DNA of 64,000 bases from Dehalococcoidia bacterium (GTDB lineage: Bacteria > Chloroflexota > Dehalococcoidia > Lucifugimonadales > UBA2985): assembly GCA_965218945.1 (NCBI GenBank), contig OZ244718.1:865139-929138 (forward strand). Reading direction: 5' to 3'. Positions 45,633 through 63,756 of the stretch are shown piece after piece. A program made the position numbers and the translations under genes. Positions within the stretch are counted from its first letter, which is position 1. Each line of letters opens with the position of its first letter. Under the pieces are notes generated by a model. That model searched no databases. It saw only the letters and a list, made by a program, of their open reading frames with translations, and was not told where the DNA came from.

Positions 45633-46565
45633 TTACACTAGCCGATCATATTGAAGAGACACGGATTCAGTACCTTCAGACATCTCTGTCTGCCCATATT
45701 TGTGCTGAGGTTTTTCGAACAATGCGCGAGTCGTGGGGGTGTAGTTGGTTACAATAACTTCCCGGTTCAATACGCGTTCCTTTCCCCCTTTGGTGGTAAC
45801 CATACCGGAGGCTGATTGAATTGGAATAATGACATGGTCCTTGAAAAGTTCGCGTATTTCAGGAATATCGTAAGATGAGAGGAGCCATTTCCCACGGCAC
45901 TTTCGAAGGCGTTCTGCTAAGGTATAGTGGTCATCCCAAGAGCGCATGTTATGGGCATAATTTGCACCATTCCCTGGATACGGGGGGTCCAAGTAAAATA
46001 CAGTCCTGTCGCTGTCATACCGGTTGATGCACTCACTCCAGTCCAGATTTTCAATTATAACTGTGCTAAGGCGCTTGTGAACAGGTTCAAGCCGCGTGTG
46101 TAGGGTCTTCAAAGCACCTGCTAGCCTGTTGCCATGACCACCGTCACTTATACTGGTCTGGAACCTCGGATAATTGAGCTCTCCCCCCCATCCTGCCATA
46201 ATAATGTAGTAAAATCTGTGTGCGCGTTGGATCGGAGACAGACTTTCTGGGTTCGTCTGGGCTAGCCGTGTAAACTCAGCACGGGAGACTAGCTCCCATT
46301 TGAAGGACTCTATGAGTTCCTCGGGATTATCCCGAACAACTCTAAAAAAGTTGATTAGCTCTTGGTCAATGTCGTTTAAGACTTCAACGTCGCTTGGAGG
46401 TTTTCCAAATAAAACCCAAGCTGCCCCCGCAAAGGGTTCAACGTAGCAAGTATGAGGAGGTAGGAGCGGGATTATGTGCCGCCGCAGTCTAGATTTGCCC
46501 CCAACCCACTTGAAAGGACTGTTGACCATTCTAGCTTCTTTGGTGCGGGGTCGCCGTTGCTCCAT
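45633..46565 (-). CDS. Dam-like (D12 class) N6-adenine DNA methyltransferase
   Basis: FKWVGGKSRL, EPFAGAAWV and DPPYPG motifs. Start at the ATG preceded by GGAGGA. Confidence 0.9.
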   Translation of the reverse strand: MEQRRPRTKEARMVNSPFKWVGGKSRLRRHIIPLLPPHTCYVEPFAGAAWVLFGKPPSDVEVLNDIDQELINFFRVVRDNPEELIESFKWELVSRAEFTRLAQTNPESLSPIQRAHRFYYIIMAGWGGELNYPRFQTSISDGGHGNRLAGALKTLHTRLEPVHKRLSTVIIENLDWSECINRYDSDRTVFYLDPPYPGNGANYAHNMRSWDDHYTLAERLRKCRGKWLLSSYDIPEIRELFKDHVIIPIQSASGMVTTKGGKERVLNREVIVTNYTPTTRALFEKPQHKYGQTEMSEGTESVSLQYDRLV

Positions 46566-46594
46566 GTATCCTCCTCTTGGAATAAGAAGACGTT

Positions 46595-46613
46595 TTGTCT
46601 CTATTGGAGACAA
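46595..46613. promoter_or_regulatory. C-box-like operator palindrome TTGTCTC-N5-GAGACAA
   Basis: Perfect 7-bp arms, 10 nt upstream of the controller-protein ATG, between divergent M and C-R genes. Confidence 0.45.
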
Positions 46614-46622
46614 TAATAGTAT

Positions 46623-46883
46623 ATGAGCACTAGTATGTCAAGGGGTTATCAAGAGAATCTAGGGGTAAGTAGATTCGGAGAGAAGCTCAAATCCCTCAGA
46701 ACCCAGAGTGGCATGACTCTGCAAGAAGTGGCTATAGCACTCGGCCACTCCGCTCACGGCTACATAAGTGAGCTAGAGGCGGGCAAAAAACAGCCAACCA
46801 TTGTACTGGTTCTCAGAGTAGCCAGGTTGTTTGACGTGACGACTGACGAGCTTCTACGGGATGATCTTGAGTTGAGGAAATAA
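46623..46883 (+). CDS. XRE-family HTH protein, probable R-M controller (C) protein
   Basis: 86 aa with HTH_3 core LRTQSGMTLQEVAIALGHSAHGYISELEAGKKQP. Position directly upstream of the putative endonuclease and divergent from the MTase. Confidence 0.65.
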   Translation: MSTSMSRGYQENLGVSRFGEKLKSLRTQSGMTLQEVAIALGHSAHGYISELEAGKKQPTIVLVLRVARLFDVTTDELLRDDLELRK

Positions 46884-46886
46884 GTA

Positions 46887-47708
46887 GTGACAAGGGGCAA
46901 TAACACTATTGAAAGGCCATTCGCTCACCGCGATCCCACAGAAGGCGAACTGGAACTGTTTCGGTTGCTATTGAACACGTTTCAAGACGGGTCGGGTCAG
47001 CTTACAGTGAATTCAGGAACCCTTCCAGGATGGCGCGACTTTGAGAGAACAATAGCGGAGATTACAGGAGGAATTGCTCCTGAGAACAAAGGTATATTCG
47101 ACGTCCTGGTCCCTGACGCTAATCCGCCGGCTCAATATGTTGGGCTTTCCGGCAAGATGCGAAAGGAATTGAGCAGGATAGACAGGGATGGGAGAGTGAC
47201 GATCGAGCTCTCCAACTCAGCACGGAAAATGTGGGAGGCCTTGGGTGATTATGAGATAACGGCGTTAGATTACAAGGGGCGAGCAATAGAGGTCGGTACT
47301 ATCCTAGTGAACCTAGTTGAGAAGTGGCATAGTGCTGCCTCTACCTACAAGGGACATGCTGTGGATATTGCGAGAAGCAGTTACTTGGCGCTCATGTGGC
47401 ATCAGGGCACAGTGAGATACCAGTTGTTCAAGTTTCCGCTTGTGCTCCCAGATCCATCCGAGCTTAACTGGTATTTCACTACCTCAGGTAAGGGACACTT
47501 GAACGGAGATGACTCCTCAGGCGGACGCGTGTTCGAGTGGTACGGCGAATCCGGGGGACAACTCAAATACTACCCTCTCAGCACAGGCGCGGCCTGGAAA
47601 TCACCAGTGTTTGACCTCGAGCAGGTTCCAGTCGAGGCCAACAAACCTCTGACGGAGAAAGCACAGGCTTATTATCCCGAACTATGGAGGGCGGCCGTCT
47701 CGTCTTAG
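46887..47708 (+). CDS. Putative type II restriction endonuclease (family not recognised)
   Basis: Assignment rests on gene context only (C gene 3 nt upstream, Dam-like MTase adjacent, AT-richer cassette). GTG start with GAGGAAA RBS. Possible PD-(D/E)xK-like FDVLV..IELSNSARK, weak. Confidence 0.45.
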   Translation: MTRGNNTIERPFAHRDPTEGELELFRLLLNTFQDGSGQLTVNSGTLPGWRDFERTIAEITGGIAPENKGIFDVLVPDANPPAQYVGLSGKMRKELSRIDRDGRVTIELSNSARKMWEALGDYEITALDYKGRAIEVGTILVNLVEKWHSAASTYKGHAVDIARSSYLALMWHQGTVRYQLFKFPLVLPDPSELNWYFTTSGKGHLNGDDSSGGRVFEWYGESGGQLKYYPLSTGAAWKSPVFDLEQVPVEANKPLTEKAQAYYPELWRAAVSS

Positions 47709-50328: not shown

Positions 50329-50590
50329 CAGCAGGGAGCGGATTCAAGTGGTAGCAGAGACAACCGACAAAGGGTAGTTCGCGAACCGCCCTTACAGGGA
50401 TGGCTTGCCGTTGCCATGCCAGTGCGGACGGGCATCCAGGAGGTGTGGAGGTGGTCGCTCGTGCGTTCGAGGTTGATTCTGTCATAGTCGTCGTGATAAC
50501 ATCTCGCGCCGTGGAACAGTGGCAACTGGTGATGGGACTCCTGGCATGGCTCCCGCTAAACCCAACAACCAGGCTCTGAGGTGGAAAAGC

Positions 50591-50944
50591 TTGACTCCCA
50601 AGCAGTCAATACAAACGGTGCTAGCGAACTACGCCAACTTCAAAGGACGGGCGCGCCGGTCGGAATACTGGTGGTTCTTTCTGTTTGTCAATGTAACGTT
50701 GGTCGTCCTGAACTTCGTTGCCGCACTTATCACAGATGTCTTGATAGTTTTCTTTGTGGTATTTGGGCTGACTTTGCTCTTGCCCTCGCTGGCAGTGACT
50801 GCCCGGCGCTTGCACGACACCAACCGTTCCGGTCGGTGGATGCTGTTGGTTTTTGTCCCTGTCGTTGGCTGGATAGTGATGCTCGTGCTGTTCGCCCTTT
50901 CCGGCGCCAGCGGCCCAAACCGCTATGGGCCTGAGCCGCTCTAG
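50591..50944 (+). CDS. DUF805 family membrane protein
   Basis: FKGRARRSEYWWF, RRLHDTNRSG.W and GPNRYGPEP. TTG start chosen by alignment with the paralogue's start and an upstream GAGGTGG. Confidence 0.8.
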   Translation: MTPKQSIQTVLANYANFKGRARRSEYWWFFLFVNVTLVVLNFVAALITDVLIVFFVVFGLTLLLPSLAVTARRLHDTNRSGRWMLLVFVPVVGWIVMLVLFALSGASGPNRYGPEPL

Positions 50945-51200: not shown

Positions 51201-51554
51201 ATGACTCCAATGCAGTCAGTTCAAACGGTTATAGGGAACTACGCCAACTTCAATGGACGGGCGCGCCGGTCTGAATACTGGTGGTTCGTTCTGTTTGTCA
51301 ATGTGTTGGTCTCGGCCTTGCTCTTCCTTGGTTTACTTGTCTCAGAACTCCTTTTCATCATTCTTGCGATATTTGCGTTGGCCGTGATAGTGCCCTCGCT
51401 GGCAGTGACGGTCAGGCGCTTGCACGACACCAATCGCTCCGGTTGGTGGATACTGGTCAATCTAATCCCCTATGTTGGCGGGTTAGTGCTGCTCGTGCTG
51501 TGCGCTTTTGCGGGCACCAGCGGCCCAAACCGCTATGGGGATGAGCCTCTCTAG
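51201..51554 (+). CDS. DUF805 family membrane protein (tandem paralogue)
   Basis: Same motifs as the first copy (FNGRARRSEYWWF, RRLHDTNRSGWW, GPNRYGDEP). Confidence 0.85.
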   Translation: MTPMQSVQTVIGNYANFNGRARRSEYWWFVLFVNVLVSALLFLGLLVSELLFIILAIFALAVIVPSLAVTVRRLHDTNRSGWWILVNLIPYVGGLVLLVLCAFAGTSGPNRYGDEPL

Positions 51555-51817: not shown

Positions 51818-53134
51818 TTGGATCGCAGTCTGGACCGGGTTGAAATGGACAAAATCGTCTCGCTGTGCAAGCGCAGGGGCTTCATCTTCCAGTCCAGCGA
51901 GATCTACGGTGGCCTCGCTTCCACGTACGACTACGGTCCCCTGGGCGTTGAGATGAAGCGCAACATCCGGGACTCCTGGTGGAAGCGATTCATCCAGGAC
52001 AGGGACGACATGGTTGGCCTGGATGCCGCCATCCTCATGCATCCCCAGGTGTGGGTCGCCTCCGGCCACGCCGAGACTTTCACCGACCCGCTGGTCGAGT
52101 GCAGGGCCTGTCACCATCGATTCCGCGCCGATCACCTGGAGTCGGACGCCTGCCCCGACTGCGGCGGCAGCCTCACGGATCCTCGCAACTTCAACCTCAT
52201 GTTCAAGACCTTCATAGGTCCGGTGGAGGACACCGCGTCCCAGGCCTACTTGCGCCCGGAGACGGCCCAGGGTATCTTCGTCAACTTCCAGAACGTCCTG
52301 GTCGCCACCCGCAAGCGCCTTCCCTTTGGCATCGGGCAGATTGGCAAGTCCTTCCGCAACGAGATCACGACGGGCAACTTCACCTTTCGCACCCGCGAGT
52401 TCGAGCAGATGGAGATTGAGTTCTTCGTCAAGCCCGGCACGGACCAAGAGTGGCACCAGCGATGGATGGACGACTTCATGGCCTGGTTCACAGACCTGGG
52501 CATTCGACCCGACAGGCTTCGACTGCGACCGCACACCGACGAGGAGCTTTCCCACTACTCCAAGGCCACCTCCGACATCGAGTACAACTTTGCCTGGGGC
52601 TGGGGCGAGCTGATGGGCATCGCCAACCGCACCGACTTCGACCTGAAGGCCCACTCTCAGCATAGCGGCGTGCGGCTGGACTACTTTGACGACGAGACCA
52701 ACGAGCACATTGTGCCCTACGTTGTGGAGCCGGCCCTGGGCGTAGACCGCGCCCTGCTCCTCTTCCTCTTTGACGCCTACGACGAGGAGACCGTTGAGGG
52801 CGACACCCGCGTGGTGCTCCACCTGCACCCGGCCATCGCCCCGGTGAAGGTGGCCGTGCTGCCCCTGAGCCGCAACGAGAGGCTTGTCCCCAAGGCCCGC
52901 GAGGTGTACGACATGGTTCGAAAGAGCTTTGTGTCCCAGTACGACGACGCCCAGTCCATAGGCCGGCGCTACCGCCGCCAGGACGAGATCGGCACGCCGC
53001 TGGCCGTGACGGTGGACTTCAAGACCATCGAAGAGGACAACGCCGTCACCATCCGAGACCGCGACACCATGCAACAGACCCGCGTCCCCATCCCGGAGCT
53101 CCTGGAGGCGCTGTCGGAGAGGCTGGCAGGGTAG
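51818..53134 (+). CDS. glyQS: Glycine--tRNA ligase (dimeric GlyQS type)
   Basis: IVSLCKRRGFIFQSSEIYGG, YLRPETAQGIF and FRNEITTGNFTFRTREFEQME. TTG start with GGAGG 7 nt upstream; the ATG at 51845 is an alternative. Confidence 0.95.
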   Translation: MDRSLDRVEMDKIVSLCKRRGFIFQSSEIYGGLASTYDYGPLGVEMKRNIRDSWWKRFIQDRDDMVGLDAAILMHPQVWVASGHAETFTDPLVECRACHHRFRADHLESDACPDCGGSLTDPRNFNLMFKTFIGPVEDTASQAYLRPETAQGIFVNFQNVLVATRKRLPFGIGQIGKSFRNEITTGNFTFRTREFEQMEIEFFVKPGTDQEWHQRWMDDFMAWFTDLGIRPDRLRLRPHTDEELSHYSKATSDIEYNFAWGWGELMGIANRTDFDLKAHSQHSGVRLDYFDDETNEHIVPYVVEPALGVDRALLLFLFDAYDEETVEGDTRVVLHLHPAIAPVKVAVLPLSRNERLVPKAREVYDMVRKSFVSQYDDAQSIGRRYRRQDEIGTPLAVTVDFKTIEEDNAVTIRDRDTMQQTRVPIPELLEALSERLAG

Positions 53135-53146
53135 GGGAGAGCAGAG

Positions 53147-53398
53147 GTGGCTGTCCGTCTCACGTTCCACGCCAGACAAAAGATGCTAGAGCGTGGAACT
53201 ACGGAGGACGAGGTTGTTGAATCTGTGCAAAGCGCCTCGTGGGAACAAGCGGACTTGGGACGCCTGCAATGCTTCATGGACTTTTCATTTGACGCCCTTT
53301 GGTATGGTCATCACTACCAGACCAAGCAAGTCAATCCGATATTCGTTGAAGAAGGCGCCGACATTGTAATAGTCACTGTGTACGTGTACTATTTCTGA
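53147..53398 (+). CDS. DUF4258 domain protein (toxin-like)
   Basis: 83 aa. Pattern LTFHARQKMLERGTTEDEV..IVIVTVY. Confidence 0.7.
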   Translation: MAVRLTFHARQKMLERGTTEDEVVESVQSASWEQADLGRLQCFMDFSFDALWYGHHYQTKQVNPIFVEEGADIVIVTVYVYYF

Positions 53399-53409: not shown

Positions 53410-53628
53410 ATGAAAATCACATACGATCCTGAGGTAGACGCTCTAAGCATAAGATTCCAGAGCGGAACCATGACCTCAAAGCATCCCTCGGAAGGCGTGG
53501 CGCTGGACTACGACGCGGAGGGCCGCCTTACGGCCATTGAGATACTGGATGCCAGCCGGCACTTTGGAGACCTGGTAGCCATCCGGCAGATGACGTTTGA
53601 AGAATTGGGCGTCAAGCAACCTTCCTGA
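53410..53628 (+). CDS. DUF2283 domain protein (antitoxin-like partner)
   Basis: MKITYDPEVDALSIRF..VALDYDAEGRLTAIEILDAS pattern. Confidence 0.8.
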   Translation: MKITYDPEVDALSIRFQSGTMTSKHPSEGVALDYDAEGRLTAIEILDASRHFGDLVAIRQMTFEELGVKQPS

Positions 53629-53688: not shown

Positions 53689-53799
53689 TGAAGCCGACGA
53701 TCCTGTCTCCTCACGCTCGGCGAAATGATGTCGAGAGGGGTGAATTGATTGCTTCACTGACATTGTGACGACTGGCACATATTCTTGACGTAATGTATA

Positions 53800-54756
53800 A
53801 TGCGCTCACAGTTTCTGCTTGGAGCGTGGTCTTTGGAATTGGACAAGATCCACCAAGGCGACTGTCTGGAAGTCCTCCCCCAACTTCCTGAGAATTCTAT
53901 AGACCTCATCTTCACCTCGCCCCCATACGCCGACAATCGCAAGAAGCCTTACAAGGGCGTACCCATTAGGGAGTACGTTGATTGGTTTCTGCCAAGGTCC
54001 GAAGAATTCTTCCGTGTCCTAAAACCGGACGGCTCTTTTGTGCTGAACATCAAGGAGAGAGCAGTCAATGGGGAGCGTCAAACCTACGTCCTTGAGTTGA
54101 TACTGGCTTTGAAAGAGCAAGGGTGGCTCTGGACGGAGGAGTACATCTGGCACAAGAAGAATTCGTATCCGGGCAAATGGCCGAATCGCTTCAGGGACGC
54201 ATGGGAACGTTGCCTTCATTTTACCAAGTCCAAGCGCTTCAAAATGTTTCAAGAGTCCGTAATGGTACCTATGGGTGAATGGAGGGACAAGAGGTTAGCT
54301 AAGCTGAGCAATGCCGACCAAGTTCGGCATGAATCCAATGCGGCAAGTGGGCTCGGAAGGAAAGTTGCGAATTGGGTTGGTAGGGAAAAAGCATACCCGA
54401 CGAACGTTCTCCATCTTGCCACGCAATGTTCCAACAGAAATCACAGTGCTACGTTCCCCAAAGAGCTACCCAAGTGGTTCATACGTTTGCTGTCAATGGA
54501 GGGAGATACAGTTTTGGACCCATTTATCGGTTCCGGCACAACCGCACTGGCAAGCCTTGAGACAAATAGGCACTACATTGGCATTGAGTTAGATAAGCAG
54601 TACTACTCATTGGCTTCTAGTGCGATAGCTGCCGAGAAGATGACAACTACTTACAGCCCCAGGCTACTTGAATTGCCAGATTTGAACGGACATATGGATA
54701 AAGAGGGTTTCCCCTTGAATCAAGAAGAGGTTAGATGGCTTGGCCACCAACACTAA
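53800..54756 (+). CDS. Beta-class DNA methyltransferase (N6-adenine or N4-cytosine; N6_N4_Mtase-type)
   Basis: Motif IV DLIFTSPPY precedes motif I DPFIGSGTTALAS. The true start may be the TTG at 53833, because a TATAAT box overlaps the ATG at 53800. Confidence 0.85.
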   Translation: MRSQFLLGAWSLELDKIHQGDCLEVLPQLPENSIDLIFTSPPYADNRKKPYKGVPIREYVDWFLPRSEEFFRVLKPDGSFVLNIKERAVNGERQTYVLELILALKEQGWLWTEEYIWHKKNSYPGKWPNRFRDAWERCLHFTKSKRFKMFQESVMVPMGEWRDKRLAKLSNADQVRHESNAASGLGRKVANWVGREKAYPTNVLHLATQCSNRNHSATFPKELPKWFIRLLSMEGDTVLDPFIGSGTTALASLETNRHYIGIELDKQYYSLASSAIAAEKMTTTYSPRLLELPDLNGHMDKEGFPLNQEEVRWLGHQH

Positions 54757-56734
54757 GAGTCTAGGTCTGCAATTCGAAAACCAAGTCAGAGGCAGCCTCA
54801 AGAGGATAGGCTTTGAGGATGTAGATGGAGGACCCACTTTCAAAATTGGTGGCTTCCAAGTTGATGCCTGCGGTGGATGGGATGATGTATTACTAATAGT
54901 CGAGTGTACGCAGTCTAACAATTCAAGTGCATCCATTCATGATCTAATTTCTGAAGTCAGAGGGAAGCAATCAGCTATACGGCGAGGATTCAGGAAGTTA
55001 GAAAAGTATCAGCACTACAATAGGTTTGAGTTTGCCATTGCCACAAAGAACATTTCATATACAGAAGGCGATAAAGCGATCTCTCGTCAGAATCCCCGTG
55101 TACATCTGATAGATTCTCAAACGCTAGAGTACTACCAACGTCTCACGACTCTAATTGGTCGGGGGTCGTTGTTCAATCTGCTTGGCGAACTTGGAGTCGA
55201 ACCTCAGGACCTGAGTCTGCCCAGAGTACCTGCATTTCGCGTAGTACTAGCAAAGAATGTGCCGGGCTACCTATTCTGGTGCCAGCCTCATCAACTCCTT
55301 CAAACAGCTTATGTTGCTCGACGTGAATCAGGGCGAGAGAAGTATTACCAACGCATGCTTAATTCCCAGCGGTTGTCGAAGATAGGTGAGTTTATTCAAA
55401 AAGGTAACATATTCCCTAACAACATCATCGTAGCATTTGATAAGAAACCCGTATTTCGCAAGAAGCCAAACTATGAGAATACGTGGCCTCCTTGGGTTGA
55501 GTTTGGGGAACTGGTATTTCCAAAGAGCTACAGGTCCTGCTGGGTTATAGATGGCCAACATAGGTTGTACAGCTTTGGGAAGTTAGACCCGAATCCACAA
55601 GGGCCAAAGCTAGCTGTTTTCGCATTTGAACCCATATCAGAAAGAGATCAGGCGAATTTCTTTATTCAGATTAACAAAGAGCAACAACCGGTATCACCAG
55701 ACCTGATTTGGGATTTAGAGGGCGAAATGAGCCCTGAAACGCCTAGGGGCCGGATATCCAATTGTGTTAAACATTTGAACTCTCTGGGACCTCTGGAAGA
55801 GAAGATATATCTTCCCTTATCGGGAGAGCGCAAACGTGGACAGTTGAAAATGTCTGGTGTGTGCCAGGACCTTGATGATACGGGCCTTCTAAGAGATCGC
55901 ACCAGATTTATGAACCAGACTCAGACTAATCCTCTTGCATATCGAAGTAACCAAGATGCTATTCCAAGGAGAGTTGCAACGGCATTAGCCGCATACTTCA
56001 AGAAAATAGAAGGTCGTTCTTCCCCAGATCTATGGACTGGTATCTACACAAAGCCTGGAGGAATAACTGTTGCTCTAAATGTCTATGAGCAAATCCTGAT
56101 TCGTGTGGGCCAAATACCATCAGATGGTCAACTGGACACTTATGTAGAAGCCCTTACGAATGTCGTGAGTGATATTGCACCGACGCAAGATGATGTACGG
56201 AGACTCATTAGGGAGCAACTTACCAGCTATGCCCAGAGGCGTCTGTTCTCGGGGGAGATTCTAACCGGAATGCAGTCGGCGCTTACTGATTACGAATTCG
56301 CTAAAGTCAGGACCCAGGCAGCCGAACCTCTCACCAATAGGCTAGCAAAGTTTGAACGGAGATTGTCAGAGTTTGTCACCGACCGCCTAAGTATAGCCTC
56401 CATCGGTGATCTGAAACAAAGGGCTCCCGAACAAACTTGGAAAAGGGTTAATCAAAGATTGGATAACCTTAAGAAAGAGAACCCGCAAGCGGCTCTTCAC
56501 GAGGCATTTACTCTGGGCGAGGTCAGAGAATTGCTGGAACGTGCTGACAACGCACCAATATTGATGCCTTTACTTACGAACTCGTCGGATGGTTTTGGAG
56601 ACGAGCAAGCCGTAATTGCAGCATTGAATGGGATCACTCGCGCTCGGAATCCGATTGCTCATGGCCGTAGTATGCTAAATCGTAAGCTTACCATTGCATA
56701 CTTAGAAACTTTCGAGCGTCTAGTGGGTTCTTAG
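54740..56734 (+). CDS. DGQHR-domain (DndB/ParB-like) protein with an N-terminal restriction-endonuclease-like module and a C-terminal HEPN-like (RNPIAH) module
   Basis: Central YQRMLNSQRLSKIGEFI..FPNNIIVAF..WVIDGQHRLYSF..QINKEQQPVSP. N-terminal FQVDACGG..LLIVECTQS. C-terminal ..LNGITRARNPIAHGR. TTG start overlaps the MTase gene by 17 nt. Confidence 0.8.
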   Translation: MATNTKSLGLQFENQVRGSLKRIGFEDVDGGPTFKIGGFQVDACGGWDDVLLIVECTQSNNSSASIHDLISEVRGKQSAIRRGFRKLEKYQHYNRFEFAIATKNISYTEGDKAISRQNPRVHLIDSQTLEYYQRLTTLIGRGSLFNLLGELGVEPQDLSLPRVPAFRVVLAKNVPGYLFWCQPHQLLQTAYVARRESGREKYYQRMLNSQRLSKIGEFIQKGNIFPNNIIVAFDKKPVFRKKPNYENTWPPWVEFGELVFPKSYRSCWVIDGQHRLYSFGKLDPNPQGPKLAVFAFEPISERDQANFFIQINKEQQPVSPDLIWDLEGEMSPETPRGRISNCVKHLNSLGPLEEKIYLPLSGERKRGQLKMSGVCQDLDDTGLLRDRTRFMNQTQTNPLAYRSNQDAIPRRVATALAAYFKKIEGRSSPDLWTGIYTKPGGITVALNVYEQILIRVGQIPSDGQLDTYVEALTNVVSDIAPTQDDVRRLIREQLTSYAQRRLFSGEILTGMQSALTDYEFAKVRTQAAEPLTNRLAKFERRLSEFVTDRLSIASIGDLKQRAPEQTWKRVNQRLDNLKKENPQAALHEAFTLGEVRELLERADNAPILMPLLTNSSDGFGDEQAVIAALNGITRARNPIAHGRSMLNRKLTIAYLETFERLVGS

Positions 56735-56805
56735 TCAGAGGGCTCCTCCTCTGATATACTCGCGCCATGCGCATTCTCCACCCCGATAGACCCCGGAGGC
56801 ACACC

Positions 56806-57048: not shown

Positions 57049-57056
57049 ATCGCGCC

Positions 57057-58292
57057 ATGCGCATTCTCCACTTTTCGGACGTGCATATAGGCGTCGAGAG
57101 CTACGGCTCCACCGACCCGGACACCGGCCTCAGCACGCGTCTCATGGACTTCCTCGCCACCTTCGGTGAGGTGGTGGACTTCGCACTGGGCAACTCCGTT
57201 GACCTCGTGCTCTTTGCCGGCGACGCCTACAAGAGCCGCGACCCGTCGCAGACCCACCAGCGGGAGTTCGCTAGGCGCATAGCCCGCCTATCCCGGGAGG
57301 GCGTGCCCGTCTTCCTGCTGGTGGGCAACCACGATTTGCCGCACATCGCCAGCCGGGCCACGGCCCTGGACATCTTTCCAACGCTCTCAGTCCCCAACGT
57401 CACCATCGGCGACCGCCTGGACACCTACATCGTTCACACCGCCGCCGGCCCGTTGCAGGTCGTCGCGCTGCCCTGGATACGTCGCAGCGCCTTCCTGGCC
57501 AGGGAGGAGACCCGCAGCCTCACCATCGACGAGATAAACCGGCAGCTGGAGGAGCGGGTCACCACCATGCTGACCTGGCAGATAGAAGGCCTTGACCCCG
57601 CCATCCCCGCGGTCCTGACCGCCCACGTCTCTCTGAACACCGCCAAGACAAGCTCGGAGCAGTCCATGCTCCTGGGCAGAGACCCCGTCCTGATGCAGAG
57701 CGCCCTTGCCCGGCCTGAGCTGGACTACGTTGCTCTGGGCCACATCCACAAGCGCCAGACGCTCTCTCAGAATCCCCACATGGTCTACTCAGGCAGCCTG
57801 GAGCGCATAGACTTTGGCGAAGAGAACGACGACAAGGGCTTCTGCGTCATCGATCTGGACACGACCGCGCCTCGGGGTCAGCGTCTTGTCGACTTTCGAT
57901 TTCAGCCCGTCAATGCCAGGCGCTTCCTCACCATAGAGGTCGCGGTCGACGCTGACGAAGACCCCACGCAGGAGACGATCAAGGCCATCGCCCGCAGGCA
58001 CGTCGCCGACGCCATAGTCAGGGTGAAGATTACCATGCCCCAGGAGGTGGAGGCGCAGCTGCGGGAGAGCGAGGTGCGGGACGCGCTGGCGTCGGCCCAC
58101 TTCGTCGCGCCCATAGTCCGGGACGTGACCAGGGAGCGACGCACGAGGCTGGGGGGCGCTTCGGTGGAGGGATTGTCGCCGCAGGAGGCGCTGCGACTGT
58201 ACCTGGAGACGACGAAGGCGCCAGCGGAGAGGGCGCAGGTGCTTCTGAGCTATGCGGAGCGTCTCATTAATGAGGAGGCGGAGGAAGGGTAG
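57057..58292 (+). CDS. sbcD: SbcD/Mre11-family DNA repair exonuclease
   Basis: MRILHFSDVHIG, GDAYKS, GNHD and GHIH metallophosphoesterase motifs. Confidence 0.85.
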   Translation: MRILHFSDVHIGVESYGSTDPDTGLSTRLMDFLATFGEVVDFALGNSVDLVLFAGDAYKSRDPSQTHQREFARRIARLSREGVPVFLLVGNHDLPHIASRATALDIFPTLSVPNVTIGDRLDTYIVHTAAGPLQVVALPWIRRSAFLAREETRSLTIDEINRQLEERVTTMLTWQIEGLDPAIPAVLTAHVSLNTAKTSSEQSMLLGRDPVLMQSALARPELDYVALGHIHKRQTLSQNPHMVYSGSLERIDFGEENDDKGFCVIDLDTTAPRGQRLVDFRFQPVNARRFLTIEVAVDADEDPTQETIKAIARRHVADAIVRVKITMPQEVEAQLRESEVRDALASAHFVAPIVRDVTRERRTRLGGASVEGLSPQEALRLYLETTKAPAERAQVLLSYAERLINEEAEEG

Positions 58293-58460: not shown

Positions 58461-60113
58461 GAGCTTGTCTCACAGGTCTGGTTGGGGGATAAGGAAGATG
58501 GTCCGGCTGGGTAAGGCAAGAGGGTATGCGCCAAATGTAGGTATAACAGCCCACGGTGGGCTGAGTTTGCTCTTTGGAATATGCTTGGTCCGGGCCCCCC
58601 TGTTCCGTATACCCCGGTCAGCCCACGCCTTCCACAGGGTGCGCAGGTTGAAGGCCACCCCCAGCAGCGACCACTCGGCCGACACGTTCTGAAGACCCCG
58701 CAAAAGGAACCTCCGCACTCCCAACTGCTCCTTGATAATCCCGAAGACCGGCTCTACGAGGCCCTTCCTGCGCCTGTAGCTCTCCTTGGCCCGGTGCGTG
58801 AGCATCAACTCTCTGTGACGACGCAGTGCCCCTTCATGGGGACCCGCTTCAATGGCTCGCCCGTGACGACCATCTACTGTGCACACCCCAAAGGCAGGAC
58901 ACCTCCGACACACCTTCCCAGAGGAGCGGTACAGACGCATCAGCACCCCTCGCGTGCTCTTCATCCGCGTGAACCGCAGACGCTCCCCATGGGGACACTC
59001 GTAGCTGTCCCTCTCCTCGTCGTAGATGAACCGGTCCTTGTGGTAAGGGTGCGAAAGCGCTCGTTGCTGCGACTCCGGCATCATCACCTGCTGCCCCCTT
59101 ACTTCGCCTTCCTCCAGGTTGCTCCCCGAATGATAGCCTGCATCCGCCAACGTCACCTCAGCCCTGACACCCGTCGTCTCCTCCGCCACCTCCAGCATCG
59201 GAACCAACTGCGAGTGGTCGTTGGGGGCGGTCGTCACCGCCACCGCCGTTATCAACATACCCTTAGTCCCCGCTTCGCTCTCCGTGGGCGACACCATCGC
59301 CTGGGCGTTGTACCCAGGGCCTATCCTCTCTCGCCCCTTCATCAGCCGAGCGTCCCCGTCGGTGAGGTTCACCCGGTTGGAACCCTCATCCTCCTCAAGC
59401 TCCTTCATCGCTCTACGCACCCGCTCTCTCAACTCCATCTTCTCCGACAACTCCGGCGGCATCTGTGCCGGTCCGCCTTCCCCTCCACCCTCGTTCTGAG
59501 CCTCCATATCCTCTATGGCCTTCTCCACCCGCTCCAGCAATCGCCTCAGACCTTCCGCATCCAGGGTCCTGTCCCCACTGGCGTTCGCCCACACCTTCGT
59601 GCCGTCCACCGCCTGCAGGGCCAACTCCACCAGTTCCAGACTCACAGCCGTCTTCACCGTTCGCTTAAGCAGCCTCCGCATCTCCTGCCGATTTCCCTTG
59701 TAGAACCGCCACAGGGTGTTGTGGTCCGGACACTGTCGCCCGCTCAGCCACAGAAAGGGTATCTGTTCCCGACACGCTGCCTCCAGCTTCCGACTCGAAC
59801 GCACCCCTCGCATGAATCCGTACAGCCACGCCCCAAGAAGCGCCCTGGGATGATAGGACGGCGCTCCCATCAAACCCCCATCCACGTCAATCCCCATTTC
59901 CAACCACTCCTCACGACTCAAGCCGTCCACGAACTCCGCTACAAATCGCACCGGATGGTCTGCCGGCGCCAACTCATCAAGACTGGGAGGCAGTATCCAA
60001 GATTGCTCTCGACCCATCGGACGCAGTGGCATATCTTTAGTCCTCCAGCGGCGGTTGTCACTTCCAACTATACCCTAACTTATTACACCCCGCCTGACTT
60101 CTGAGACAAGCTC
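58461..60113 (-). mobile_element. IS1182-like insertion sequence (minimal extent; the maximal extent including the 28-bp perfect inverted repeat is 58445..60129)
   Basis: Perfect inverted repeat gtaggggcggttcgcggagcttgtctca (58445..58472) against its complement at 60102..60129. The outer 16 bp on each side may be a split host palindrome. Confidence 0.85.
58470..60032 (-). CDS. IS1182-family (DUF772 N-terminus plus DDE) transposase
   Basis: N-terminus LPPSLDELAPADHPVRFV..YHPRALLGAWLYGFMRGVRSSRKLE and a DDE region ..AVDGTKV.., LTDGDARLMK, ADAGY. Confidence 0.9.
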   Translation of the reverse strand: MPLRPMGREQSWILPPSLDELAPADHPVRFVAEFVDGLSREEWLEMGIDVDGGLMGAPSYHPRALLGAWLYGFMRGVRSSRKLEAACREQIPFLWLSGRQCPDHNTLWRFYKGNRQEMRRLLKRTVKTAVSLELVELALQAVDGTKVWANASGDRTLDAEGLRRLLERVEKAIEDMEAQNEGGGEGGPAQMPPELSEKMELRERVRRAMKELEEDEGSNRVNLTDGDARLMKGRERIGPGYNAQAMVSPTESEAGTKGMLITAVAVTTAPNDHSQLVPMLEVAEETTGVRAEVTLADAGYHSGSNLEEGEVRGQQVMMPESQQRALSHPYHKDRFIYDEERDSYECPHGERLRFTRMKSTRGVLMRLYRSSGKVCRRCPAFGVCTVDGRHGRAIEAGPHEGALRRHRELMLTHRAKESYRRRKGLVEPVFGIIKEQLGVRRFLLRGLQNVSAEWSLLGVAFNLRTLWKAWADRGIRNRGARTKHIPKSKLSPPWAVIPTFGAYPLALPSRTIFLIPQPDL

Positions 60114-60171: not shown

Positions 60172-60224
60172 TTGACACCCTATACGGCCTCTGTTAGCAT
60201 GGATACATCGTATTACGATGTATC
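60172..60224 (+). promoter_or_regulatory. Candidate promoter (TTGACA, 17-bp spacer, TAGCAT) overlapped at the predicted start site by a 23-bp perfect palindrome gATACATCGTAtTACGATGTATc
   Basis: Hexamers at 60172..60177 and 60195..60200. The palindrome at 60202..60224 was read directly from the sequence. Confidence 0.4.
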
Positions 60225-60307
60225 GAAACCAGAAGCAACGGCACTCTGGCCAGACCACTCGGCTGGCCCTTGGCGTCGCAGTCTCTGACGGCAGAAGGGA
60301 GCAAACT

Positions 60308-61357
60308 GTGGAGGCCCAGGGGAACCGCATCGACACAACTCCCGCTATTCTGCGCAAGTACCTGGACGGGGTTGAGGAGGCGCTGGACGAGTTGCTGTCT
60401 CCCAACAACCCGGACATGTCCACCATTCTCAAGTACCACATGGGCTGGGTCGACGAAAGCGGGAATCCCACTCCCCTGAGCCAGGGGAAGCGGCTGCGTC
60501 CCTCCCTCTGCATGTTCGCCTGCGAGGCCGTGGGCGGACTGCCGGAGCAAGCCCTCCCGGTCGCCGCGGCGCTGGAGCTTGTCCACAACTTCTCCCTCAT
60601 CCACGACGACATCCAGGACGGCGACCTGCAGCGCCACCATCGACCCACAGTGTGGGCGGTCTGGGGCAGGCCCAAGGCGCTCCAGGCCGGAAACGTGATG
60701 CGGGTCCTGGCCGACCTGGGCGTTCAGCGACTTGTCGGAGAGAGGCTCGCGCCGGACGTGGTGGCCGGGTGCAGCCGTGCGCTGAGCAACGCCTATCTGG
60801 AGATGATAGAGGGGCAGTACCTGGACATGGACTTCGAGGGCCGGACGGACATAGATACCGCCAGCTATCTGGAGATGGTTGCACGGAAGACTGGTGCGCT
60901 GATTCGTTGCTCGATGCACATGGGGTCTCTGGTGGGCAGCGGCAGTGCCGAGACCGTACAGGCGATGTCGCGGTGCGGCCGCTATCTGGGACTGGCATTT
61001 CAGATAAGGGACGACTACCTGGGCGTATGGGGCTATGAAGAGGAGACGGGGAAGCCGATAGGGAACGACCTGCGGAGGAAGAAGAACTCTCTGCCTCTGG
61101 TGTACGCCCTGGAGAAGGCCGGCAGCGCGGAGAGGGAGCATATACAGTCCATCTACGCCAAGGACGAGGTGGACGACAGGGACGTCGCCTCAATGATGGA
61201 CGTGCTGGAGCAGTTGGGAGTCTCGAGCTACGTTCAGATGCTTGCTCAGAAGCAGGCCGATCTGGCGCAAGAGGCTCTGGAGAGCGTACCGACCACGGAG
61301 CGCGCCAGGGAGGAGATGCAGGAGCTTGTGGAGTTCCTTTTGACTCGCCAGCGCTAG
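60308..61357 (+). CDS. Polyprenyl diphosphate synthase (FPP/GGPP synthase family)
   Basis: FARM LIHDDIQDGD and SARM FQIRDDYLG. GTG start with AAGGGAG RBS preferred over the ATG at 60218, which lies inside the palindrome. Confidence 0.85.
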   Translation: MEAQGNRIDTTPAILRKYLDGVEEALDELLSPNNPDMSTILKYHMGWVDESGNPTPLSQGKRLRPSLCMFACEAVGGLPEQALPVAAALELVHNFSLIHDDIQDGDLQRHHRPTVWAVWGRPKALQAGNVMRVLADLGVQRLVGERLAPDVVAGCSRALSNAYLEMIEGQYLDMDFEGRTDIDTASYLEMVARKTGALIRCSMHMGSLVGSGSAETVQAMSRCGRYLGLAFQIRDDYLGVWGYEEETGKPIGNDLRRKKNSLPLVYALEKAGSAEREHIQSIYAKDEVDDRDVASMMDVLEQLGVSSYVQMLAQKQADLAQEALESVPTTERAREEMQELVEFLLTRQR

Positions 61358-61965: not shown

Positions 61966-62853
61966 ATGGACTCCCTTATAGCGGGCGCTCGCGGCAAGTG
62001 GAGCGTGGAGCAATCGTATGAGTATTGTCGAAAGCTCGCCAAGTCTCACTACGAGAACTTCACCGTCGCCTCGTGGTTCCTTCCCAGGGAGAAACGGCCT
62101 CACGTCTACGCTATATACGCCTTCTGCCGCTTTGTAGACGACCTGGGGGATGAGTCCCCCGGAGACCGCCTGGGCCTTCTGGACTGGTGGGAGAATGAGC
62201 TTCGCAGCTGCTACTCATCTACGCCGACACATCCCATTGCGGTTGCGCTGCGGGAGACGATCCACCGCTTCGAGATTCCCCAGGAGCCGTTCCTGAAGCT
62301 CGTAGAGGCCAACCGTATGGACCAGAAGGTCAGTCGCCACGCCACCTACGATGACCTGCTGCGCTACTGCGACCACTCCGCCAATCCGGTCGGCCACCTG
62401 TTCCTCTATCTGTTCGGGTACCGTGACGAGGAGAGGCAGCGCCTGTCCGACGCCACATGTACGGCGCTCCAGCTGACCAACTTCTGGCAGGACGTGCGCC
62501 GCGACCTGGACATGGGCCGCGTTTATATTCCCCAGGAGGATATGGAGCGCTTCGGGTACACGGAGGAAAAGCTGCACGCCGGGGTGGTCGACGACTCCTT
62601 CAGGGACCTGATGCGCTTCCAGGTGGACCGCGCCAGAGTCCTCTTCGACCAAGGCGCTGAGCTGGTGGATACGGTGGAGGGAGCCGTGCGTTTGGACATA
62701 GCCCTATTTACCCTGGGTGGTCTGCACATCCTGAAGGCGATTGAGCGCCGGAGATACGACGTTCTCAGCAGCCGCCCAACCCTGTCCAAGATCGCCAGGG
62801 CATGGCTTGTCGCAAGGACGGCTGCCGGACTGAAGCTGAAGAGAAAAATCTGA
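61966..62853 (+). CDS. hpnC: Squalene/phytoene synthase family protein, HpnC-like (hydroxysqualene synthase)
   Basis: YENFTVASWFLP..YAFCRFVDDLGDE. First of two paralogues followed by an FAD oxidase, as in hpnCDE. Confidence 0.7.
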   Translation: MDSLIAGARGKWSVEQSYEYCRKLAKSHYENFTVASWFLPREKRPHVYAIYAFCRFVDDLGDESPGDRLGLLDWWENELRSCYSSTPTHPIAVALRETIHRFEIPQEPFLKLVEANRMDQKVSRHATYDDLLRYCDHSANPVGHLFLYLFGYRDEERQRLSDATCTALQLTNFWQDVRRDLDMGRVYIPQEDMERFGYTEEKLHAGVVDDSFRDLMRFQVDRARVLFDQGAELVDTVEGAVRLDIALFTLGGLHILKAIERRRYDVLSSRPTLSKIARAWLVARTAAGLKLKRKI

Positions 62854-62883: not shown

Positions 62884-63756
62884 ATGGCCAGTGAGCTGGA
62901 CCAAGCGTACGAGTATTGTCGTAGACTCACCAAGGAGCGCGCCAAGAACTTCTACTACGCCTTCATTACCCTGCCTGCTATTAAGCGAAGGGCTATCTAC
63001 GCCGTCTACGCCTTCTGCCGGCTGTGTGACGACGCCACGGACGACTTCATTGAGGTGGAGGAGAAGATGCGGCTGGTGGCCGAGCAGCGAGCACTGCTTG
63101 CCCGCGCCTGTGCCGGCGAGCCTGAGGGACAGGTGTATGTTGCTCTGGAGGATACCATAAACACCTATAGCTTACCGATGGAGTATCTGGAAGAGGTGAT
63201 CAACGGTGTTGAGATGGATATCTCCAAATCGCGCTACTCTACCTTTGAGGAGCTGAGGGAGTACTGCTATCGCGTGGCTTCGTCGGTGGGGCTGATCTGC
63301 ATCGAGATATTCGGATACAATGCCCCCGGCGCAAGAGAGCACGCGGTTGACCTTGGTCTGGCAATGCAACTCACCAACATCCTCCGGGACGTGGAGGAGG
63401 ATATGGAGCGGGACAGGCTGTACATACCCCAGGAGGAGTTGGCTCGCTTTGGCTGCTCGGAAGAGGACATCTTCCTGGGAAGGGTTGACGACGGCTTCAG
63501 AGACCTCATGAGGTTTCAGGTGGAGCGCGCTCGGGAGTACTTCGTGAAGGGCAAGCAGCTTCTGCCTATGCTGTCGCCCAGGTCCAGGGCCTGCCCGGCA
63601 GTGCTTCACGGCACGTACAGCCGGCTGCTGGACCGCATAGAGGCATCCGACTATAACGTTTTTGGCAGGAGGGTGAGCCTCAGCACCCGCGAGAAGCTTG
63701 TGCTTATGGCGAGGCTATGGGCGAATGGAATAGCGGCAAGGGCCTCGGGAAGGTAG
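62884..63756 (+). CDS. hpnD: Squalene/phytoene synthase family protein, HpnD-like (presqualene diphosphate synthase)
   Basis: KNFYYAFITLP..YAFCRLCDDATD, with a second Asp-rich segment NILRDVEEDMERDRLYIP. Confidence 0.7.
   Translation: MASELDQAYEYCRRLTKERAKNFYYAFITLPAIKRRAIYAVYAFCRLCDDATDDFIEVEEKMRLVAEQRALLARACAGEPEGQVYVALEDTINTYSLPMEYLEEVINGVEMDISKSRYSTFEELREYCYRVASSVGLICIEIFGYNAPGAREHAVDLGLAMQLTNILRDVEEDMERDRLYIPQEELARFGCSEEDIFLGRVDDGFRDLMRFQVERAREYFVKGKQLLPMLSPRSRACPAVLHGTYSRLLDRIEASDYNVFGRRVSLSTREKLVLMARLWANGIAARASGR

Follow-up and report, generated by a model that had tools for sequence, protein, structure and literature searches.

A DNA methyltransferase translationally coupled to a PD-(D/E)xK, DGQHR and HEPN-like fusion protein in a Dehalococcoidia genome: a candidate restriction-modification-type module

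Within a stretch of 64,000 nucleotides (nt) from a Dehalococcoidia bacterium (assembly GCA_965218945.1, contig OZ244718.1, positions 865,139 to 929,138 of the forward strand; hereafter the window) a compact two-gene cassette joins a DNA methyltransferase (MTase) to a 664-amino-acid (aa) multidomain protein, here called the effector. The question raised by this locus is whether the two proteins form a system that tells self from foreign nucleic acid, and if so whether that system is a form of restriction-modification (R-M) or something else. An original prediction, made from the letters of the DNA, had described the pair as a candidate undescribed modification-linked defence system. Our analysis leads us to favour, with moderate confidence, a horizontally acquired R-M-type self/non-self module, a reading carried by the identities of the domains, the conservation of three sets of motifs, the coupling of the two genes, their constant pairing within one clade and the pairing of the effector family with four families of MTases.

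The cassette consists of two open reading frames (ORFs) on the same strand. The 3′ end of the MTase gene and the TTG start of the effector gene overlap by 17 nt, and a GAGG motif lies 9 nt 5′ of the TTG. Read directly from the sequence, the two ORFs, their coordinates, the overlap, the TTG start and the GAGG are all as originally predicted, and the two genes are translationally coupled. The cassette and its parts are as follows.

53800..54756, + strand: beta-class DNA MTase of 318 aa, predicted to modify N4-cytosine (PF01555, E=1.5e-44; PADLOC MTase_II, 1.2e-51)
54727..54756, + strand: coupling junction, with GAGG at 54727-54730, the effector TTG at 54740 and the MTase stop codon TAA at 54754-54756
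54740..56734, + strand: effector of 664 aa with a TTG start
54740..55204, + strand: effector residues 1-155, PD-(D/E)xK (Mrr/Hjc-like) nuclease fold with E13, D42 and E55-C56-T57
55217..55795, + strand: effector residues 160-352, DGQHR (ParB/Srx-fold) domain with YQR at 203-205, DGQHR at 271-275 and FxxxN at 308-312
55796..56326, + strand: effector residues 353-529, a helical region in the AlphaFold2 secondary structure, given no separate assignment
56327..56731, + strand: effector residues 530-664, HEPN-like four-helix domain with R636-N-P-I-A-H641

In the MTase the TSPPY motif (motif IV) precedes DPFIGSG (motif I, FxGxG), which is the motif order of the beta class, and both the S-adenosylmethionine-binding and the catalytic motifs of a DNA MTase are present; the beta-class assignment and the PF01555 match that had been forecast for this protein are thereby borne out. 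The best homologue of solved structure is M.PvuII, an N4-cytosine enzyme (1boo, E=4.4e-31, residues 16-286), followed by further N4-cytosine MTases; the adenine enzymes CcrM, MboIIA and RsrI rank below these. A Ser in the (S/D/N)PPY motif is typical of N4-cytosine MTases. Because the motif here is TSPPY and the best solved homologues are N4-cytosine enzymes, we predict that the MTase makes N4-methylcytosine. Its homologues all align only from residue 12, so TTG 53833, with a GGAG 8 nt 5′ of it (53821-53824), may be the start of translation in place of ATG 53800.

The effector was analysed with an AlphaFold2 model built on 37 homologues (mean predicted local distance difference test score, pLDDT, 87), and residue conservation was counted over 75 relatives drawn from all branches of the family. 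In Foldseek searches of the PDB the N-terminal ∼150 residues match the PD-(D/E)xK proteins AF1548 (1y88), Can2 (7bdv) and VC1899 (1xmx) with a probability of 1.0, the matches including the nuclease domains of Can2 and VC1899/Card1, and match McrC, XisH and the Holliday resolvase Hje with 0.9. This agrees with the restriction endonuclease (REase) fold that had been suspected in residues 1 to about 130. Among the N-terminal segments of relatives, 6 of 26 matched Mrr_cat and 4 of 26 Hjc; a profile search of the N-terminal alignment against PDB sequences gave only a marginal Hjc match (E=0.78). The E, D and E-x-K residues of Pyrococcus furiosus Hjc (1gef) align with effector E13, D42 and E55-C-T57, of which E13 is conserved in 62, D42 in 74 and E55 in 69 of the 75 relatives, while position 57 is Lys in 50, Thr in 16 (the window protein included) and Arg in 6. 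Judged by model and motifs, the N-terminal domain is itself an Mrr/Hjc-like REase fold. It has the fold and the E...D...E-x-K spacing in common with the Hjc/Mrr nucleases; it differs from them in being one domain of a far larger protein and in the Lys to Thr change of this clade, and nothing points to Holliday-junction substrates. The original statement that the locus holds no dnd, dpd or ssp genes and no classical REase is correct in its first part for the window region examined and in its second undersells this domain.

The central domain was expected to be a DGQHR domain, and its TIGR03187 match reaches 109.4 bits, where the cut-off is 58.85. The YQR, DGQHR and FxxxN motifs are invariant (75/75). 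By Foldseek the domain resembles the ParB-like protein PadC (probability 0.97-0.98) and sulfiredoxin (Srx), with SspE among the weak matches only. In longer relatives TIGR03187 also spans the counterpart of residues 353-529, and the N-terminal part of that helical region continues the DGQHR/DndB-type domain. In vitro binding of both ATP and GTP has been found for a DndB-like protein (bioRxiv 10.1101/2025.10.10.680097).

The C-terminal 135 residues were modelled with a pLDDT of 92.6. In this model R636-x4-H641 ends the third long helix, which an insert of short helices separates from the second one. HEPN domains are described as four-helix up-down bundles with an Rx4-6H motif where helix 3 ends and often an insert between helices 2 and 3 (PMC3710099), a description that both the helix layout and the position of the motif match. 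The Rx4H motif is kept in about 97% of relatives (R636 in 73 and H641 in 72 of 75). HEPN_Swt1 is matched by the relative at locus L006 with 28.5 bits (curated cut-off 27.5), and other relatives give weak matches to Swt1, Abi_2/AbiD and RiboL-PSP HEPN domains (8e-4 to 2e-2). A profile search of the C-terminal alignment against PDB sequences found nothing, and phmmer of the whole effector against the PDB found nothing useful. From these sequence and model comparisons a HEPN domain is well supported for the family, while no single test proves it for the window protein.

If the effector is the restriction component of an R-M-type pair, its genomic company is the place to look. The family is large, with 459 matches in a database clustered at 90% identity, 784 clusters at 50% identity (E<=1e-30) and, in the species genomes of GTDB, more than 516 loci, and its hosts include Dehalococcoidia (the closest relatives), Thermoplasmata, DPANN and other archaea, bacteria of the candidate phyla radiation (CPR) and many Proteobacteria. 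We called ORFs and classified the neighbours in 78 of these genome loci. Within 500 bp of the effector gene lies a Dam-like MTase (PF02086) at 33 loci, a PF01555 MTase at 4, an MT-A70 MTase (PF05063) at 3 and a C5 MTase (PF00145) at 1, so that one of four unrelated MTase families is present at 41 of the 78 loci; an MTase lies within 3 kb at 5 more. Most Dam-like genes are 3′ of the effector gene and overlap its stop codon by a few nt. Where methylases that are not homologous to each other have been recruited next to a single conserved partner, that partner bears the classic signature of the restriction component of R-M systems, and by its pairing with four unrelated MTase families the effector carries this signature.

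Pairing is strictest in the clade to which the window belongs. A PF01555 MTase lies directly 5′ of the effector gene and on the same strand in all 11 independent clade members (the window, L002, L003, P0004, P0011, P0031, P0056, P0025, P0032, P0045 and P0050; 42-67% identity), which upholds the conserved pairing with such an MTase that had been anticipated. TSPPY is present in the window MTase and in all six aligned clade partners. A small upstream ORF was considered as a third component and rejected, the small ORFs beside relatives being non-homologous with the exception of one pair.

The cassette is also set apart by its base composition. Across 53750-56750 the GC content is 0.45-0.50, as against 0.55-0.65 on both sides, so the block is indeed AT-richer than its flanks; its mean is 0.473 and that of the whole window 0.592, and taken as a block it stands at 47% beside flanks of 58-62%. 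In six other clade genomes the cassette has a GC content of 0.45-0.51 and the flanks 0.56-0.67, a difference of 10-17 points, and the clade cassettes occupy differing genomic contexts. In the window and these six genomes alike the cassette is of foreign composition, which fits acquisition by horizontal transfer. In six genomes (the window, L001, L084, L086, L121 and L123) the cassette is directly 5′ of sbcD (Metallophos). The SbcD proteins of these genomes are only 51-81% identical, yet the cassette is 10-17 points below the host in GC content, which may reflect either a long stay during which no amelioration took place or a hot spot at which the cassette is replaced time and again. Carriage by phages is rare: among 2.9 million IMG/VR contigs there are about six full-length-like relatives (<=28% identity), and two phage-record matches span the DGQHR domain only.

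Together these data are consistent with the following mechanism. The MTase, probably an N4-cytosine enzyme, would mark and by this methylation protect the host DNA, and the 664-aa protein, made from the same mRNA, would be the restriction effector. Its DGQHR ParB-fold domain would bind nucleotide and act as a nucleotide-dependent DNA-binding switch or clamp that gates the enzyme, the N-terminal PD-(D/E)xK domain would cut DNA that lacks the mark, and the Swt1/Abi2-type HEPN domain would be a second, RNA-directed effector serving either as an abortive-infection back-up or in regulation of the enzyme. In R-M contexts it is the nuclease or the ATPase subunit, and not the methylase, that bears a fused HEPN domain, and a back-up or regulatory ribonuclease (RNase) role has been proposed in general terms for HEPN-REase fusions (both PMC3710099).

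Several observations weigh against this R-M-type module. The catalytic D...(D/E)-x-K triad is incomplete in the window protein, which has D42...E55-C-T57 where the family majority has E-C-K, and a DNase with Thr57 may have reduced activity or may rely on a different basic residue. The best HEPN match of the window C-terminus is HEPN_MAE_28990 (E=0.012), below every Pfam HEPN cut-off, and a Foldseek search of the PDB with the isolated C-terminal domain model returned only generic helical bundles and no HEPN structure; the Swt1-like HEPN foreseen for this end of the protein holds at the level of the family, where L006 passes the cut-off and the Rx4H is kept, and not in the score of the window protein itself. 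About 30 of the 78 surveyed loci (about 40%) have no adjacent MTase. Most of these belong to an archaeal, CPR and Planctomycetes branch at 35-40% identity, and among their 108 neighbour proteins there is no dominant family and no alternative conserved partner. In the literature we found no experimental work on the effector architecture and no biochemistry for any member of the family.

Further counterpoints concern inheritance. Between L086 and L121 both flanks are 96-97% identical in nucleotide sequence and most of the MTase gene is 97% identical, and yet the effector genes have no nucleotide similarity and the effector proteins are only 38% identical. Similarly, L084 and L123 are 89-92% identical over flanks and MTase and 47% identical in their effectors. 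In both pairs of loci the break points of the exchange are at or near the gene borders. Across 55 pairs the identities of MTase and effector are uncorrelated (Spearman 0.18, p=0.2), and in 46 of them the MTase is the more conserved protein (identities of 56-94% for the MTase and of 38-67% for the effector). A partner that diverges faster than its MTase is usual for R-M pairs. On these comparisons the histories of effector and MTase are unlinked, the effector gene having been replaced under a constant MTase, so the co-inheritance of nuclease and MTase that marks Type II R-M is not seen. Independent assortment of this kind is hard to square with a sequence-specific REase that needs a matched MTase; it suggests that either all effector alleles accept the same mark or the effector reads modification generically and is under diversifying selection. 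A further point comes from the closest relative. At L001 (OZ253588.1, a Dehalococcoidia metagenome-assembled genome, 3686-7996; 89% identity) the MTase gene is in three pieces, split by two insertion sequence (IS) elements, one DDE_Tnp_1_6 and one DDE_Tnp_1_4, while the effector ORF is unbroken and retains its motifs, so the effector is not obviously lethal without the MTase. Polar loss of expression could explain its survival.

Compared with the PvuII-type Type II systems, then, the pair is alike in its two-gene operon, its PF01555 TSPPY methylase and its faster-evolving PD-(D/E)xK partner, and differs in that this partner has 664 aa with added DGQHR and HEPN domains, carries the Lys to Thr change and assorts independently; the effector is matched by no REase_II model.

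A more far-reaching alternative is a distinct class of modification-linked immunity, in which a nucleotide-switched ParB-fold polypeptide with a DNase and a HEPN RNase would unite restriction and abortive infection in one protein and would read the mark generically and not a recognition sequence. Generic reading of the mark would explain why the same core occurs with four methylase families, and possibly with the radical-SAM module described below, and it would also explain why divergent effector alleles are swapped while the methylase stays the same, the outcome expected if phage inhibitors drive an arms race. With a REase fold at the N-terminus an unusual R-M system is the simplest reading and not a new principle. 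We hold the distinct class to be less likely than not. Among the closest known designs are GmrSD, BrxU and SspE, Type IV-like restriction proteins with a ParB-like DUF262 NTPase fused to a nuclease, which have in common with the effector a ParB/Srx-fold, nucleoside triphosphate (NTP)-binding DGQ(Q/H)R domain fused to a modification-responsive DNA nuclease (PMC4619093). In those proteins the nuclease is a C-terminal HNH/DUF1524 domain, whereas here it is an N-terminal PD-(D/E)xK domain with a HEPN domain in addition, and the coupling of the effector to a methylase implies a modification that protects and does not trigger; DUF262, DUF1524 and HNH models (Pfam, PADLOC) gave no match in the effector.

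Relatives with other partners or other N-termini bear on how the core might sense DNA. The same core occurs with an N-terminal EVE or HARE-HTH domain, both of which are associated with the recognition of modified DNA, at P0080, P0075, L013 and L020 (about 830 aa) and at L011 (766 aa); such fusions fit a protein that checks how DNA is modified. On plasmid pNL1 of Novosphingobium aromaticivorans (L093, NC_009426.1) and an Agrobacterium plasmid (L094, NZ_CP072139.1) the homologue lies beside a small DGQHR protein, a radical-SAM protein of the B12-binding type and an HSP90/GHKL-like ATPase, and the same small DGQHR, radical-SAM and HSP90/GHKL-like neighbours are found at L034, L060, L065 and L072. 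This set of genes has no family name in NCBIfam or PADLOC and may be an unnamed DNA-modification module that stands in for the methylase.

Alternatively the effector could be a stand-alone sensor-effector or abortive-infection module, an NTP-gated DNase/RNase triggered by a feature of invading DNA or by infection, with the methylase either as an accessory that tunes it or as an independent resident beside which effector alleles change places. The loci without an adjacent MTase, the intact effector beside the IS-broken MTase of L001 and the effector alleles swapped under a constant MTase would all be expected of such a module; the solitary EVE-fused variants resemble modification-dependent (Type IV-like) enzymes, and HEPN domains are typical of abortive-infection and toxin-antitoxin effectors (PMC3710099). 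However, a methylase that is a mere neighbour should not be paired 11 times out of 11 in overlapping or closely spaced genes, nor should four unrelated MTase families have been recruited beside one core with overlaps that are often of 4 nt, a pattern that points to functional dependence; the MTase also has the foreign GC content of the cassette. We therefore regard this alternative as unlikely, and as the more substantial of the remaining rivals to the R-M-type module.

In a third model the DGQHR protein would act on the methylase, as its controller or its helper in the manner of DndB or DpdB, and would attack no foreign nucleic acid. The only characterised DGQHR proteins are indeed of this kind, DndB being an ATP-modulated dnd repressor and DpdB an ATPase that aids base insertion (PMC4507180; PMC12839542), and the central domain, which has the DGQHR ParB fold and the QR, DGQHR and FxxxN motifs in common with them, matches both models. 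Yet it scores far below the cut-offs of the equivalogs, DpdB (NF041060) and DndB (PF14072 and TIGR03233), with 53.3 against 300 for the DpdB model and 24.7 against 29.1 for PF14072, and no dnd, dpd or ssp genes are present in the window region examined; on these two grounds membership in a dnd, dpd or ssp system was rejected. DndB has been described as ParB-like plus HEPN (Makarova et al. 2013, PMC3632139). The effector differs from DndB and DpdB in not being their equivalog, in its extra N-terminal nuclease and in having a methylase as partner instead of a sulfur or deazaguanine pathway. A regulator would have no need of a nuclease domain on either side, each with its catalytic residues conserved, and it would not be expected to assort independently of the MTase that it regulates, so we consider this model very unlikely. 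R-M pairs are able to act as addiction modules, and a selfish cassette that maintains itself mainly by post-segregational killing, with little benefit in defence, would suit the foreign composition and the housekeeping contexts beside toxin-antitoxin-like genes; it is the least probable of the readings, as the effector of L001 has outlived the loss of its MTase, the opposite of addiction, as the cassette kept 5′ of sbcD in several diverged genomes suggests stable residence, and as addiction is compatible with a defence role as well.

How new is the architecture? PADLOC-DB 2.0 and NCBIfam 2026 assign the pair to no named system, as had been supposed, and offer domain-only matches (DpdB, the Mrr-like nuclease of ZorD, CARF_PDDEXK, AbiD and PDC-M34B). 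In this sense the description of the architecture as undescribed holds; as a fusion it does not wholly hold, since catalogues of 2013 record fusions of DGQHR/COG1479 domains with PD-(D/E)xK, HNH and HEPN domains and their linkage to R-M (PMC3632139), and a Swt1-like HEPN fused to ParB, with Saro_3948 as the example (PMC3710099). The HEPN fusions of Anantharaman et al. 2013 are like the effector in their Swt1-like HEPN domain with an active Rx4H, their fusion to a ParB fold and their R-M linkage; the pNL1 homologue has the same core and matches HEPN_Swt1. Theirs is a catalogue entry only, and neither the N-terminal nuclease nor the pattern of MTase swapping is described there. The principle of the fusion has already been catalogued computationally.

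The immediate surroundings of the cassette are those of an islet among housekeeping genes and not of a defence island. The cassette is flanked by a class II aminoacyl-tRNA synthetase gene (51818..53134) and sbcD (57057..58292), small toxin-antitoxin-like genes are inserted on both sides of it, and farther out come an IS element and housekeeping genes. The toxin-antitoxin-like character of these neighbours is as first described, with a weak DUF4258 and a DUF2283 match on the 5′ side and, by profile match, a UPF0150/HicB-like gene on the 3′ side. The smaller features next to the cassette are listed here.

53147-53398: DUF4258 gene (weak, E=4.5e-4), between the tRNA synthetase gene and the MTase gene
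53410-53628: DUF2283 gene (E=5.8e-16), between the tRNA synthetase gene and the MTase gene
53772..53801, + strand: promoter-like site CTGGCA-18 nt-TATAAT just 5′ of the MTase, from a consensus scan (10/12 matches)
56735..56754, + strand: hairpin after the effector stop codon, with a 7-bp stem, a 6-nt loop and no T-run

The DUF4258 and DUF2283 genes are absent in L001, where the MTase directly follows the synthetase. Promoter-like sites are no more numerous in the region than expected from shuffled sequence, so the one listed is only a lead; its TATAAT-like hexamer overlaps the ATG of the MTase (53800). The hairpin that was said to end the block exists and is weak, with a z-score of -1.83 and 11 of 200 shuffles folding equally well, and conservation of its left arm fails in L001. 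As a terminator it was rejected on the grounds of its z-score, the missing T-run and the lost arm, and it is probably not a functional one.

On the 3′ side a perfect 22-nt direct repeat, TCGCGCCATGCGCATTCTCCAC, occurs at window positions 56760-56781 and 57050-57071 and brackets a 290-nt segment with the HicB/UPF0150-like gene, an insert that is missing from L001. The repeat includes the start codon and the first five codons of sbcD, so the annotated start of the HicB-like ORF (MRILH...) is a duplicated sbcD start, and the true start is probably Met14. Directly after sbcD, at 58470-60032 on the minus strand, lies an IS transposase gene (DDE_Tnp_1_6 and DUF772), part of which has 76% nucleotide identity to an IS that disrupts the MTase of L001. 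Further away the window holds tandem paralogous DUF805 membrane-protein genes (50519-50944 and 51201-51554), tandem squalene/phytoene synthase genes (61966-62853 and 62884-63756) that follow a polyprenyl synthetase gene (60218-61357), and, in the composition profile, another AT-richer stretch at 46000-47500 (GC 0.48-0.51 against about 0.6).

If the R-M-type model holds, the family would be an untested branch of R-M comprising 784 clusters at 50% identity (E<=1e-30), and we regard it as of above-average interest because it is widespread and because of its effector-swapping pattern. Such a branch would be unusual in three respects: its effector would couple the cutting of DNA to an NTP switch and an RNase, its modification module would be interchangeable, and its effector gene would be replaced independently of the methylase. 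The family would also offer a test case for the 2013 prediction that HEPN domains are suicide back-ups fused to restriction enzymes. Among the cultured hosts of the Dam-linked version are Stenotrophomonas daejeonensis, Lysobacter cavernae and several species of Mesorhizobium, and other cultured hosts, Rhizobium leguminosarum for one, have a relative without an adjacent methylase; with cultured hosts for the Dam-linked version the idea is directly testable. If true, it would give a function to many proteins that are at present annotated only as 'DGQHR domain-containing protein'.

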